Assembly: GCF_006345805.1 (NCBI RefSeq)
Contig: NW_021824803.1
Location: 1-17,232 of the forward strand
DNA: 17,232 nt
Reading direction: 5' to 3'
Source of the DNA: Octopus sinensis
Lineage: Eukaryota
Part shown: piece by piece, positions 2,927 through 17,167 of the stretch
Numbering within the stretch: position 1 is the first letter of the stretch
How the letters are laid out: each line of letters opens with the position of its first letter
Made by a program: the position numbers and the translations under genes
Notes under the pieces: model-generated
What the model saw: the letters and a program-made list of their open reading frames with translations, nothing else
What the model was told of the DNA's origin: nothing
Databases searched by the model: none

Positions 2927-4028
2927 CTAGCTGAGGTACTCGGTAAAAAAATTACCGTTAATAAGATGTTTGTTTATCGGCATGAAACATTTTTCGGCAA
3001 ATTTCGATATTTTTCAAAAATTTAAAATCCATATTAATGGGTAAAACCAATTTGACGAAAAAATGAGCGGAATCTGGTAACGAACCGTGTTGTCGTCATT
3101 TTTGTAACACGTGCGTAAAATGGCGAAATTTTACGCTTTGGGGCAGATTTTGTCAAATTGATGTCACTACGGCTAGTGTGTAAAATGCATAAATTTTGCT
3201 TGTGAAATAGAATGCTTTTACCTAATCAAAACCTGAAACGCCGGGAAATTCAAACAACGAATTGAAATAACAAGTTTTAGCAGATCAAAACAATTCGCAT
3301 TGGAATGAAGAATTAGCAAATACTAAATAGATTACCGTTAATAAGATGGCTGTCTATACACATGAAACATATATCGTCAAATTTCGTGAAATTGATATCA
3401 CGATGGCTAGTGCGAAAAATGCCGAAAGGATCTTTTCGGTTTGAACGGCAGCTTTTAACATAATTTCTAGGTAACTAAAAAAATTTAAACTTCGTATACT
3501 GGTAGAATGTGTTTATAAAACATCATTTTCTCTTGGCTTTATTGAGAAAATTCTATGGTTTGTAAGATATTTGTTGTTTTTTTTTCTTCGATTTCTGCAA
3601 TTTCAACCAATCACTGACGTCTATTGAGGTAAAAAAAACATTCTGTGCCGTATGAATATGTCCCTCGTTTAAGAAACAGATTGGGTTTATTTACATTTCT
3701 GAAGAAAAAAAGATACCCTTCCTCCTAACAGATTGAAATGCAATAGATCGATACTAGGGTCATAATTATGGGTGACGATTTATATGACACCGCTAGAAAA
3801 AACTGCCCCGAAATTTTACGATTTTTGAAAAATCGATGCTGAGGAAAAATCATTTTTTTAAAAATTCCACGTAAGTAACCGCGTGGGCATAAGCCCCCCC
3901 CCCACACACACACACACATACACACACAAACACATCGTTTCAAGTTTCATCAAGGTCTGTCGGATAGTCTTTGAGGAGTTAAAGTAACAAATTCACAAAC
4001 ACACAAACTTGCCATTTATTATAATAGA
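2927..4028 (-). mobile_element. Non-autonomous Helitron containing a nested MITE M
   Basis: Minus strand starts A|TC at 4029/4028 and ends CTAG|T at 2927/2926. Subterminal hairpin CGGTAA-AAAAA-TTACCG at 2941-2957, 10 nt from the CTAG. No TSD. Internal diverged repeats (2951-3006 vs 3331-3386). Confidence 0.8.
3428..3807 (+). mobile_element. MITE family M (copy 3), right TIR mostly deleted
   Basis: Left TIR intact at 3428 and body collinear with 1566-2310 without the duplication. Ends at CTGCC, after which host sequence CCGAAATTTTACG resumes. Confidence 0.9.
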
Positions 4029-7506: not shown

Positions 7507-7800
7507 TGGAGGTGCAATGGCCTTGTGGGTTAGGGTAAAGCGACTCGCGGTTTCGATTCCCAGACCGGGCGTTGTGAGTGTTTATTGAGCGAAAACACTA
7601 AAAGCTCACGAGGCTCCGGCAGGGGGTGGTGATCCCTGCTGTACTCTTTCCCCACTCTTTCCTCCCACTCTTTCTTCTGTTGGCCTGCTCGCTTAGCCAG
7701 CGGGTGTGGCGTCATTCGAAGGCTTAAAAAACTTGCGAACACATTGTGACCAGCGATGTGTAAGTACATCTGATGGACTGGTCGGTCACGTGATGATGAT
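7507..7800 (+). mobile_element. SINE family A, tail type 2
   Basis: Head and core match family A up to ~7670, followed by an unrelated tail ending in (TGA)n. Confidence 0.85.
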
Positions 7801-8107: not shown

Positions 8108-8336
8108 AAACGGGGGACATATTCATACGGCACAGAATGTTTTCACCTCAATAGATGTCATTGATTGGTTGTAATTGAAGAAAAAAACAACAAATATCTT
8201 ACAAACTATAGAATTTTCTCAATAAAGCCAAGAGAAAAAGATGTTTTATAAACACATTCTACCAGTATAGGAAGTTTAAAATTTTTTAGTTACCAAGAAA
8301 TTATGTTAAAAATGCCCGTTCAAACCGAAAAGATCC
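8108..8336 (-). mobile_element. MITE family M (copy 4), left part only
   Basis: Reverse complement of ~1566-1808, with the TIR ending at 8336. Confidence 0.85.
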
Positions 8337-9800: not shown

Positions 9801-9977
9801 TGTTATTTCCTTAGCAATAATATTTCTATGGTTGAGAAGCGAACTTTTAACAACACAATCATACATTTATGTGTGTGCACGCGTACTCTAGTTGTAAGAG
9901 GACCAGTACAGTGTAGATTATGATTAACTAAACATCCCTAAACCTAAATATATATTTTGCTTCACCATAAAAAAATG

Positions 9978-10263
9978 GTCCAGCGGTTAGGGCAGCAGAC
10001 TCGCAGTCGGAGGAACGCGGTTTCGATTCCCAAACAGGGCATTGTGTGTGTTTATTGAGCGAAAACACCTAAAGCTCCACGAGGCTCAGGCAGGGGGTGG
10101 TGGCGACCCCTGTTGTACTCTTTCGCCCCAACTTTCTCGCTCTCTCTTCCTGTTTCTTGAGTAACGCTGCGATGGACTGGCGTCCCGCCCAGATGGGGGG
10201 AACACATACGCCACAGAAACCGGGAAACTGGGCCCATGAGCCTGGCTAGGCTTGAAAAGGGCG
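9978..10263 (+). mobile_element. SINE family A, tail type 3, slightly 5'-truncated
   Basis: Family A head and core followed by a third tail (GCGATGGACTGGCGTCCC...CAGAAACCGGG). Perfect 12-bp TSD CATAAAAAAATG at 9966-9977 and 10264-10275. Confidence 0.85.
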
Positions 10264-10789: not shown

Positions 10790-11175
10790 TACTCTTTTAC
10801 TCCTTTACTTGTTTCAGTCATTTGACTGCGGCCATGCTGGAGCACCGCCTTTAGTCGAGCAAATCGACCCCAGGACTTATTCTTTGTAAGCCTAGTACTT
10901 ATTCTATCGGTCTCCTAGGCCAAACCGCTAAGTTACGGAGACGTAAACACACCAGCATCGGTTGTCAAGCGATGTTGGGGGAACAAAGACACACACACAC
11001 ACACACACATACATACGACGGGTTTCTTTCAGTTTCCGTCTACCAAATCCACTCACAAGGCTTTGGTTGGCCCGAGGCTATAGTAGAAGACACTTGCCCT
11101 AGGTGCCACGCAGCGGGAATGAACCGGCAACCATGTGGTTGGTAAGCAAGCTACTTACCACACAGCCACTCCTAC
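10790..11175 (-). mobile_element. SINE family B
   Basis: Near-identical to 940-1344, with a central (CA)n tract. Confidence 0.9.
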
Positions 11176-11250
11176 ATACTACATAGAAAGAAATCTGTGT
11201 GCATGAGCGTGTGTATGTGTATGTGTGTGAAACACACGAGCTGTTAAACA

Positions 11251-11866: not shown

Positions 11867-12244
11867 GTGGAAGCACTCCGTCGGTTACGACGACGAGGGT
11901 TCCGGTTGATCCGATCAACGGAACAGCCTGCTCGTGAAATTAACGTGCAAGTGGCTGAGCACTCCACAGACACGTATACCCTTAACGTAGTTCTCGGGGA
12001 TATTCAGCGTGACACAGAGAGTGACAAGCCGCCCTTGAAATACAGGTACAACAGAAACAGGAAGTAAGAGTGAGAGAAAGTTGTGGTGAAAGAGTACAGC
12101 AGGGATCACCACCATCCCTGCCGGAGCCTCATGGAGCTTTAGGTGTTTTCGCTCAATAAACACTCACAACGCCCGGTTTGGGAATCGAAACCGCGATCCT
12201 ACGACCGCGAGTCGGCTGCCATAACCACTGGGCCATTGCGCCTC
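11867..12244 (-). mobile_element. SINE family A, tail type 1, full length
   Basis: Reverse complement of 367-755. 13-bp TSD CATTGGCTATAAT at 11854-11866 and 12245-12257. Confidence 0.92.
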
Positions 12245-12784
12245 CATTGGCTATAATATTAAACATTTAAATCAGGTTGGTCGATTATTTAGTTTGGATT
12301 ACTTGCTAAGGTTATCTCTACAGATATTCAATAGAAATTATAGCCATGTCTGATTTTTGTTACGACGTCTCGGATATGAAACGTCGTAACAAAAGTGCAC
12401 TGCTAACACAGTAGAACACGGTATTGACTTCTAATATCGGCTCCATATTGACTTATAAAAAATTTTTAAAAAAAAACGTTTAATTTACTTTATAGTATAT
12501 TATGGTTGCATTATGAAAAACTGCGTCCCTATAAGTCATTATTTTGGGTCATGGCAGTTGGGTTGGTAATGAGGTAATGTCCGAAGTGAAATGCCCATAA
12601 CACTTTGCTGGAACTCCGAGATTGTTGGAGGGCAGGTGTAATTTATCTTCAGACTGGAGACCGTGTCCGAATTCTTACAATAGCATGGACTCTGGTGATG
12701 GCACTCAGGAGCCAGACAATGTCGTTAAATCAGGCGGCATATTAAATCTACCACTCAACGACGAGAGAGGTCCTTCCTCCACAC

Positions 12785-15487: not shown

Positions 15488-15978
15488 GATATTTGTAGTT
15501 GGCCCTAATGTGAGATTATAATGCCTTTAAAAAAATTGTTGAACTGCTACTTTTTTCGTTCATGAAAAACACGAGCAGCACTCTCAAATATTGATTCAGT
15601 TATCACGGATTTTGAACCAGCTTTGATCAAGGTCTTCAAAAGATATTAAGATAAATTACACCCCTTTCCATACATAAATATGATACACACACAAGCACAT
15701 ACGAACACACACACAGTATACTTTTATTCTTTTACTTGTTTCAGTCGATTTGACTGCGGTCATGCTGGAGCACCACCTTAAAGTGATTTTTTTTAGTCGA
15801 AGCACTCGACCCCCAGGACTTATTCTTTGTAAGCTTAGTACTTATTCTATCGGCCTCTTTGGCCGAACCGCTAGGTTACGGGGACGTAAACACACCAACA
15901 TCGCATGTCAGGTAATGGTGGTGGGGACAAACACAGACACAAAGACACACACACATAAATATATATATATATATATAC

Positions 15979-16317
15979 AAAACAAATATAAGAGAGTGGT
16001 CAATATATTGCTCACTCTAGCACCAGTTAATCCAAAAGGTTTCAACCACGAAGATACATGTTTCCCATGAAAGCCAGTACTACTGTTAGCTCACACGGAC
16101 AGGGCAAGTAAAAAAATAACAAAAATACAGATTATTTTGGGACAATTGTTTCGCTATTAATGAATTATTAAATGTAATATTACTTAAAAAAATCCATTTG
16201 TAGCTCGTCAGCCAAGACTATCTGATGAAATCCACTCAATCACACGCCAGATTATACCATAACGATAAATACGCGTGCGGTTCAATGATTACATCCGACG
16301 TTATAATTCAAATGCCC
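15979..16317 (-). mobile_element. Hammerhead-bearing insertion (Penelope-like pseudo-LTR or retrozyme-like)
   Basis: Unique ~340 bp flanked by TATATATATATAC (15966-15978) and TATATTTATATAC (16318-16330). Contains a full hammerhead motif and no convincing ORF. Confidence 0.65.
16137..16215 (-). ncRNA. Type I hammerhead ribozyme motif
   Basis: Minus strand reads stem I TTGG, core CTGACGA, stem II GCTA..(44 nt)..TAGC, GAAA, stem III ACAATTGT (sharing the last A), C17, stem I CCAA. GUC triplet; predicted cut between 16141 and 16140. Confidence 0.85.
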
Positions 16318-16534
16318 TATATTTATATACGACGAGTTTCTTTCAGTTTCCGTCTACCAAATCTACTCACAAGGCTTTGGTCGGCCCGAGGCTATAGTAG
16401 AAAACACTTGCCCAAGGTGTCACGCAGTGGGACTGATCCCGGAGTCATGTGCTTGAAAAGCAAGCTTCTTACCACACAGCCACGCCTGCACCTATAATAT
16501 ATATTTTTTAATATTTTAATTAAGCATGAAAATG

Positions 16535-17167
16535 CGAGAGTGGGCTGCAAAAGTTCATGGGCTGACTAAGAAGGAGTTATCATACATTAATTAAATTTGG
16601 CATGCATTAAATTCAATCTTAACTAATACTAACTGCATTTTTTTTCTTTCCAGATAAGCCCACATAGGATACAGAATTGAGGACTTGGAAAAGTGATACA
16701 AGAGACATTTCTTGAAAACGGACAAATTTGGCACCGTAGTGTTATCAAATATTTGCAAAATATGGGGTTAGCCCCCAAAGACATTCATGCTGACATGGTT
16801 TCTACATTAGGGGATGATGCTCTAACTTTATCAATTGTGGGTTGTTGGATTCAAGAGGGGTAGGAAGAGTCTTGAAGATGACCCAAGGTCCGGACGTCCT
16901 GCCACAGCCACCACCCAAGAAAACATCGACGTGATAGATGACAGACGTTTAAATGTTAATCAGATAGCTAATAGGGTCCTTCTTCATCAGGACAATACTC
17001 CTGCACACAAGTCTGTGTCTGTAATGGCTACTGTGATTTGTCACCATCTGATTATTTTCTGTTCCGTAACATGAAAAAACAAAACTTGGCTGGGAAACAG
17101 TAACGGACCGATGATGAGGTTATATCGGCTGTTGAGGTCTTTTTCGAGGGTCAGGATAAGAGCTTCT
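16535..17167 (+). pseudogene. Internally deleted mariner transposon with decayed transposase
   Basis: Left TIR-like CGAGAGTGGGCTGCAAAAGTTC. Translations: HRSVIKYLQNMGLAPKDIHADMVSTLGDDA, FKRGRKSLEDDPRSGRP, VLLHQDNTPAHKS, SDYFLFRNMKK, DDEVISAVEVFFEGQDKSF. Frameshifts and deletions are present, and a SINE cuts it at 17168. Confidence 0.9.

Follow-up and report, generated by a model that had tools for sequence, protein, structure and literature searches.

The window, by which we mean the whole 17,232-nt stretch of Octopus sinensis DNA analysed here, carries on its minus strand a complete type I hammerhead motif that can be read directly from the letters. The motif lies in a lone fragment of a tandem repeat unit, and this fragment splits a SINE-like host repeat. 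The features concerned, with the evidence for each, are as follows.

16128..16224, minus strand: type I hammerhead motif together with its distal stem I helix (direct reading, Rfam, covariation)
16205..16211, minus strand: hammerhead core CUGACGA (C3 to A9, with N7 = C; relaxed hammerhead scan)
16153..16204, minus strand: stem II, a 4-bp base and a 44-nt AU-rich extension (fold and scan)
16142..16149, minus strand: stem III, 2 bp and an AAUU loop, self-complementary 8-mer ACAAUUGU (fold and scan)
16140..16141, minus strand: predicted cleavage site, after C17 (from hammerhead numbering)
15976..16317, minus strand: single 5'-truncated arm of a 535-bp unit (BLAST to the natural unit of locus L017, 94-99% identity)
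15956..15990, minus strand: fixed 'short' 3' end of the unit (unit position ~160-164), merging into a (TA)n target (BLAST, end mapping)
15716..15955, plus strand: left half of the SINE-like host repeat (77-81% identity to three other window copies)
16318..16500, plus strand: right half of the SINE-like host repeat (88% identity)

All of the hammerhead elements listed in a preliminary description of this DNA are present on the minus strand. In stem I, UUGG (16215-16212) pairs with CCAA (16140-16137), and we find in addition a distal helix (16224-16220 with 16132-16128) that was absent from that description. The base of stem II is formed by GCUA (16204-16201) and UAGC (16156-16153), the GAA of the core occupies 16152-16150, and C17 is 16141; the cut that had been predicted between 16141 and 16140 agrees with hammerhead numbering, and the 8-mer of stem III at 16142-16149 is indeed self-complementary. 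The conserved core, the three stems and the open stem I are those of a type I hammerhead. The motif is not a minimal hammerhead (no or 1-bp helix III and a bulged base before helix II), as helix III has 2 bp with a tetraloop and G10.1 is followed directly by its pair with C11.1. A 191-nt search with Rfam model RF00163 gave 27.3 bits (E 5.5e-5), a score that is under the gathering score of 34 because of the long stem II insert, and a whole-window Rfam search at E≤1 did not report the hammerhead. The relaxed hammerhead scan found a single match in the whole window, with no second hammerhead there, and the fold has a z score of -3.13, with 3 of 200 shuffles folding as well as the motif. The motif is real and more than chance; the hammerhead as such is ordinary.

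Stem II had been described as unusually long and as capped by a palindrome. The long extension is present, but the cap is not a family trait: it occurs in 81 of 204 sampled intact copies, against 112 with a non-palindromic variant, and the window copy has small stem II indels relative to most family copies. The AAUU loop of stem III, by comparison, is found in 198 of the 204. Nor is a long stem II a peculiarity of this family, since at least three unrelated hammerhead families of the same genome, chance neighbours in the stretches that we fetched, have stem II regions of 50-65 nt. Long-stem-II hammerheads lie at L162:335-441, L162:5652-5763, L169:9328-9432, L055:1695-1804 and L217:452-563, and standard searches would probably miss such motifs.

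With unit position 1 defined as the first base after the predicted cut, the 342-bp window arm consists of unit positions 358-535 followed by 1-164, and we infer that its fixed short 3' end is a reverse transcriptase (RT) start site. The two halves of the SINE-like repeat are contiguous in uninterrupted window copies (~946-1345 and 10794-11176), and the insertion target was the central CA/TA run of this repeat. No host gene was recognised on the 17-kb contig, and the window's lone copy is probably inert. Elsewhere in the window, we noted several copies of another SINE-like repeat (364-703, 2499-2830, 7528-7607, 9974-10145 and 11914-12249), which has a tRNA-like GGTTCGA box, and ARAGORN found no tRNA gene over the window, this repeat included. 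We also noted a 283-bp direct duplication at 1651-2209, which contains (CCCTAA)-like repeats of telomeric type at 1866-1925 and 2150-2209; inverted copies related to it lie at 3428-3709 and 8181-8336. A decayed, stop-riddled transposase-like fragment at 16650-17130 (plus strand) has a weak HTH_32 match (E 0.0019, below cut-off), and its motifs resemble those of mariner/Tc1 elements.

The repeat unit from which the window arm derives is 535 bp long with 33% GC, is arranged in head-to-tail tandem, and contains one type I hammerhead. It has no ORF; the longest stop-free frames are 58 aa (sense) and 87 aa (antisense). A similarity search of its own genome (2.72 Gb) yielded 830 candidates and 41 scored matches, 40 of which are other copies with 95-96% identity, many of them spaced 535 bp apart. 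Exact patterns, which give lower bounds, match at least 900 intact cores genome-wide. Similarly, there are at least 1711 exact matches to unit positions 269-291, at least 556 junctions of position 291 with TA and at least 257 junctions of position 164 with TA; the reversed control is 0 in all four cases. Insertions of the unit are almost all in (TA)n, and its mobility is evident from the insertion that splits a SINE and from the dispersed end junctions. The unit thus combines the features of retrozymes: tandem units with a hammerhead in each, no coding capacity, GC below 45-50%, and dispersed mobile copies. The 124 clusters that we mapped contain unit sequence only, and an RT and a GIY-YIG endonuclease between pLTRs are absent from them. 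We assign the unit to the non-LTR retrozymes with high confidence.

Folded as a circle, the unit reaches -153.4 kcal/mol, compared to -108 ± 5.6 kcal/mol for 40 shuffles (z -8.1), and seven control stretches gave z scores from -3.2 to +2.5. A sister retrozyme family (L201-L220; 28 exact motif matches) has a ~502-bp unit that is ~70% identical over the whole unit, and it retains both ends described below, the TA targets, the inverted arms and a similar fold. A loose end in the read pile-up that had been considered as a link to an ORF was traced to this sister family instead.

The genomic copies have a distinctive architecture. The 124 clusters were mapped from 101 stretches chosen in four ways; they sample the places that were listed first, most of which are on the largest contigs. 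Before counting, we removed the second, duplicated cluster of L043 as well as L176 (the same as L124) and L093 (the same as L181), and three clusters cut by a stretch edge were excluded. There are 40 one-armed clusters, which end at position 291 (33 clusters), at position 164 (6, the window included) or elsewhere (1). The remaining 81 are two-armed insertions with their arms head to head, and their outer ends are unlike: 72 are 164/291, 8 pair 291 with another position and 1 pairs 164 with another position, while like-with-like pairs are found in 0 of 81. In the subset that was chosen by hammerhead only, and hence blind to the ends, 164/291 pairs make up 27 of 29 insertions and homotypic pairs are absent (p = 7e-9 if the ends were chosen independently); in the subset chosen by the 164 end, the count is 14 of 15. 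The two fixed ends are 127 nt apart, and both finish in TATA, which merges with the (TA)n flank. One apparent 291/291 insertion, L128, was rejected, as its real end is position 330, with an inverted flank duplication. At this insertion (L128:430-1250), the host DNA around a TA run is duplicated in inverted orientation, which reflects either a complex repair event or an assembly artefact.

The arms, which are up to 3.3 kb long, cross the predicted cut site in 50 of 79 and 80 of 113 cases (130 of 192 in total), and none of 202 5' ends falls at unit positions 1-3. An initial pile-up of 5' ends at the cut site was a BLAST artefact that the refined count, 0 of 202, removed. Thus, the template was not a cleaved linear monomer.

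The same genome carries young elements that encode an RT with a C-terminal GIY-YIG domain in intact frames of 775 and 781 aa, which we take to belong to the Neptune clade of Penelope-like elements (PLEs) from their CxxxxCxxC linker. One family (L221-L250 and L261) is very young, with a 4.27-kb unit, the 775-aa ORF and many copies that are 99-100% identical. It has a minimal hammerhead variant (L261:1756 and 6028, plus strand) in which position 4 is C and the base of stem II is mismatched, as seen in all 29 copies listed. The second family (L163:674-4374) has two overlapping ORFs, one of 479 aa with no Pfam match and one of 781 aa with RT and GIY-YIG, and our scans did not find a hammerhead in it. 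In one of these two families (L169), a minimal hammerhead variant lies 142 nt before the short end; the corresponding distance in the retrozyme is 164 nt. Both Neptune-type families terminate in (TA)n at two sites ~26-30 nt apart, and two-armed copies with both outer ends visible combine a tailed and an untailed end in 8 of 8 cases (L252 was read by eye, and L256 was left out, with one outer end beyond view). Therefore, the retrozyme shares the integration footprint of the Neptune-type elements, with a tail of 127 nt, and the Penelope-type link that the preliminary description had drawn is supported.

We searched 100 PLE-containing loci by BLAST and nhmmer/profile for an autonomous partner that shares unit sequence and found none. 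These loci represent mostly two families and the best-scoring candidates only (147 matches to the GIY-YIG query among the best 150 of 5029 candidates, and the best 150 of 19166 candidates for the Neptune C-terminal query), and the search yielded only separate retrozyme insertions near Neptune copies. Two long-stem-II hammerheads, in L162 and L169, were rejected as Neptune pLTR ribozymes, because they are outside the sequence common to Neptune copies; that of L169 is in a separate short TA-flanked piece. As side observations, a retrozyme array is inserted directly in the TA run that ends a Neptune copy (L176:5441-5460), and L250 holds a Neptune pair inserted tail to tail; retrozyme and Neptune elements reuse each other's TA ends as targets. 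We consider it very likely that the retrozyme is mobilised by Penelope machinery.

Many aspects of this arrangement have counterparts in known systems. As described in PMC8557442, PMC3846280 and PMC4209133, EN+ Neptune-clade PLEs likewise form partial tandems, are truncated at the 5' end, have a second, inverted copy that is itself 5'-truncated, are tailed at one end only, insert into microsatellites and carry a hammerhead upstream of their ends. The one-ended tail and inverted arm of these elements are thus known in qualitative terms; the origin of tandem, inverted, tailed PLE insertions is called undefined in PMC8557442. The retrozyme differs from the Neptune PLEs so described in that it has no ORF, a tail of 127 nt rather than 30-40 nt, and a canonical hammerhead with a long stem II, whereas PLE hammerheads are minimal. 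In L1 twin priming, both target ends prime on one RNA to generate an inverted arm, as here. However, the second site of L1 is variable and its arms are non-overlapping, while the retrozyme has two fixed sites, and the same stretch can be repeated several times in both of its arms. A parallel to the two sites comes from the anole Poseidon element PAc (PMC11167929): two internal RT start sites define and bound the tail, the targets are AT-rich, and the Penelope protein, modelled as a dimer, cuts and extends both strands. In that study, the start sites used in vitro are alike on both strands and one site per end is not proposed, whereas the genomic pairing of the retrozyme implies that start site and target end are coupled in each event.

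With respect to other retrozymes, those of metazoans in PMC7229834 (coral, Mytilus, axolotl) and bioRxiv 10.64898/2026.07.22.740005 (31 vertebrates, 3 insects and 1 coral) are likewise non-coding tandems whose units each contain a single type I hammerhead; they have less than 45% GC (33% here), are highly self-paired and co-exist with PLEs. The unit of 535 nt is longer than the 170-400 nt of the PMC7229834 retrozymes and inside the 51-972 range of the bioRxiv set; its 52-nt stem II region is a further difference, and neither source describes, in its available text, two-armed insertions, fixed ends or (TA)n targeting. In both sources, the use of Penelope enzymes or circles by retrozymes is so far based on co-occurrence and pLTR homology.

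The predicted folds bear on how the RNA might be processed. The lowest-energy fold of the monomer (-21.1 kcal/mol) is 5.6 kcal/mol below the hammerhead fold (-15.5 kcal/mol), and this preferred fold is predicted to pair GACGA of the core with the cleavage triplet. Stem III is predicted at +2.4 kcal/mol as a hairpin and -6.4 kcal/mol as an 8-bp duplex, which amounts to a predicted dimerisation gain of ~11 kcal/mol per ribozyme pair. These predicted energetics would suit cleavage in multimers and a stable monomer circle, and cleavage as a dimer is plausible. A short palindromic helix III is considered a dimer design in PMC4209133, but only 1 of 9 Xenopus retrozyme dimers cleaved in vitro in bioRxiv 10.64898/2026.07.22.740005. 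The invertebrate retrozyme hammerheads of PMC7229834, by contrast, are described as cleaving efficiently as monomers, and we regard the chances that the ribozyme is active mainly as a dimer as even.

Covariation, the check on the stems named in the preliminary description, is observed between families. We aligned 14 hammerheads (~4 lineages) from the retrozyme family, the sister family and three unrelated long-stem-II motifs; 89% of the cells pair, and 9 of 15 pairs have double changes, which 0 of 500 shuffles reach, although this count is not a probability because the rows are related. The sister family mostly lacks pair G10.1-C11.1, with a C-C or A-C mismatch in its place, and 7 of 14 alignment rows are unpaired there. 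Within the young family, purifying selection on the core is not detectable: of 42 subfamily variants, one (U4C, in 7 sampled loci including L181) falls in the core, which is about what chance would give.

Every one of the 30 unit bins is covered by contigs from five small sequencing runs, four of them presumably of RNA and the fifth of unrecorded kind. Two of these runs have an excess of A>G changes (X1, 11 A>G and 0 T>C; X20, 29 and 9), whereas X2, X6 and X7 have none at the listing threshold, with one X2 contig carrying 19 differences, and two large runs have 1-2 A>G places only. The excess in X1 and X20 is a hint of edited sense-strand RNA rather than proof, because the organism label is unlike that of the large runs. 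In X20 and X2, A>G changes are seen inside the hammerhead at L017:1634-1657, including A15.1 (L017:1643) and stem II, on contigs that extend across the cut site; editing in the hammerhead could switch the ribozyme off.

We propose the following route. Arrays would be transcribed, and neighbouring hammerheads would cleave, probably as dimers. The monomers may be ligated into 535-nt circles, whose ribozyme is predicted to misfold and to be inactive; circular templates have been proposed before (PMC4209133 and PMC7229834). The Penelope enzyme likely makes cuts in the two strands of a (TA)n run, and the protein, probably a dimer, would engage unit positions 164 and 291, both of which are AU-rich, end in UAUA just 3' of a predicted helix and could pair with the TA end of the target. 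Each RT would then copy one unit-length RNA over a variable distance, either by running round a circular molecule or by template jumping on a linear one with terminal redundancy, and the two truncated cDNAs would be end-joined head to head. Where one cDNA aborts, a one-armed insertion such as the window's would result. That a Neptune-type Penelope RT/GIY-YIG endonuclease mobilises the unit by priming both target ends at two fixed sites is probable, and repeated copying of a unit-length RNA template is favoured slightly less strongly.

The units and arms of one insertion carry a single haplotype, in keeping with one template per insertion, and the insertion L181 is informative about this template. 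All four of its rare insertion-wide changes are A>G, and they are present in 9-10 of 9-11 units and in both arms. Exact patterns spanning three of the four changes have all their genome matches (8 of 8 each) inside L181; among the sampled loci, one change is unique to L181, one is also in L082, and two recur in a locus with a divergent sister-type piece. The simplest reading is that one A-to-I edited RNA stretch was copied about ten times. The outermost 291-end unit is without two of the four changes, which is not predicted by a pure single circle, and this gap could be due to terminal redundancy, editing during synthesis, gene conversion or assembly polishing. Rare insertion-wide variants have no general A>G bias (6 A>G versus 6 T>C), so L181 is a single case. 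The combined reading, in which one RT dimer engages both cut ends and copies one RNA of about unit length repeatedly from two dedicated sites, and in which L181 derives from an ADAR-edited RNA, is one that we put forward tentatively, at somewhat under even chances.

If instead Penelope priming at the two sites used an uncleaved multimeric read-through transcript, there would be no circles and the hammerhead would be a passenger inherited from a pLTR. Such a template is in keeping with arms that freely cross the cut site, with an outermost L181 unit that differs like a separate copy, with the continued spread of U4C copies, and with the dispensability of the anole hammerhead, mutants of which leave in vitro insertion unaffected (PMC11167929). 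However, the L181 haplotype is at no other locus, hence there is no donor array with it; independent editing of each unit would not hit the same four sites in 9-10 units; and the hammerhead stems covary between families that are 70% alike. We therefore consider a read-through template unlikely.

Sequence variation within insertions bears on whether short retrotransposed insertions grew and were homogenised afterwards, satellite-like, by unequal crossover and gene conversion, a scenario proposed in bioRxiv 10.64898/2026.07.22.740005. Block-wise sharing of variants, typical of later DNA-level duplication, is indeed found in L082 (16 segments, 61 variable columns), L087, L088 and L105. At 167 of 187 sites, in turn, subfamily variants extend to every unit of the two arms, and unit-private differences are mostly transversions, which suggests sequencing noise; within-array identity could be inflated by assembly polishing. 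What makes DNA-level growth improbable as the general origin of the arrays is that the inverted arms of one insertion (0.45% divergence) are at least as alike as the units within an arm (1.0%; between insertions, 3.3%), that no more than one column varies in 20 of 61 multi-segment insertions, and that an all-A>G set across inverted arms is unexpected from DNA mutation.

The inner junctions address a further possibility, which has been proposed for rotifer Penelope elements (PMC3846280): fold-back self-priming on an antisense template, rather than priming at the second target end, would give rise to the inverted arm. A hint of antisense RNA comes from some T>C changes in one of the small runs, and both 5' ends are within 10 nt of each other at 7 of 81 junctions. 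This number is near the permutation mean of 3.9 (p = 0.09), so palindromic junctions are not enriched, and most junctions are blunt or have 1-6 nt of microhomology between unrelated unit positions. Fold-back, which would also leave the constant unlikeness of the outer ends unexplained, is very improbable. Least credible of all is a regulatory role of the window copy in a minus-strand host transcript, which the preliminary description supposed could be self-cleaved if it spans the site. The core and stems of this copy are intact, but the family to which it belongs has 900 copies, among which it is young and ordinary. It is a single truncated arm that lies in a SINE, no host gene was recognised on the contig, and its monomer fold is predicted to be inactive.

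In the literature consulted, which included few subscription journals, we did not find descriptions of this family, of two-armed retrozyme insertions or of one start site per target end, and the family could be listed in published supplementary element lists or already have a name in Repbase or Dfam. The element belongs to a known retrozyme class, in which its Penelope-type two-ended insertions and its long tail stand out. As a short, young, high-copy element free of ORFs, it displays an integration footprint that it has in common with intact Neptune elements of the same genome, and it provides a 535-nt substrate and a prediction for the existing in vitro assay, namely one start site per target strand. 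If copying by one RT dimer from two dedicated sites is the correct reading, it would explain together why PLEs and retrozymes have an inverted arm, a tail at one end only and tandem arrays, and at L181 an ADAR-edited RNA would have given rise to about ten genomic copies in one event.
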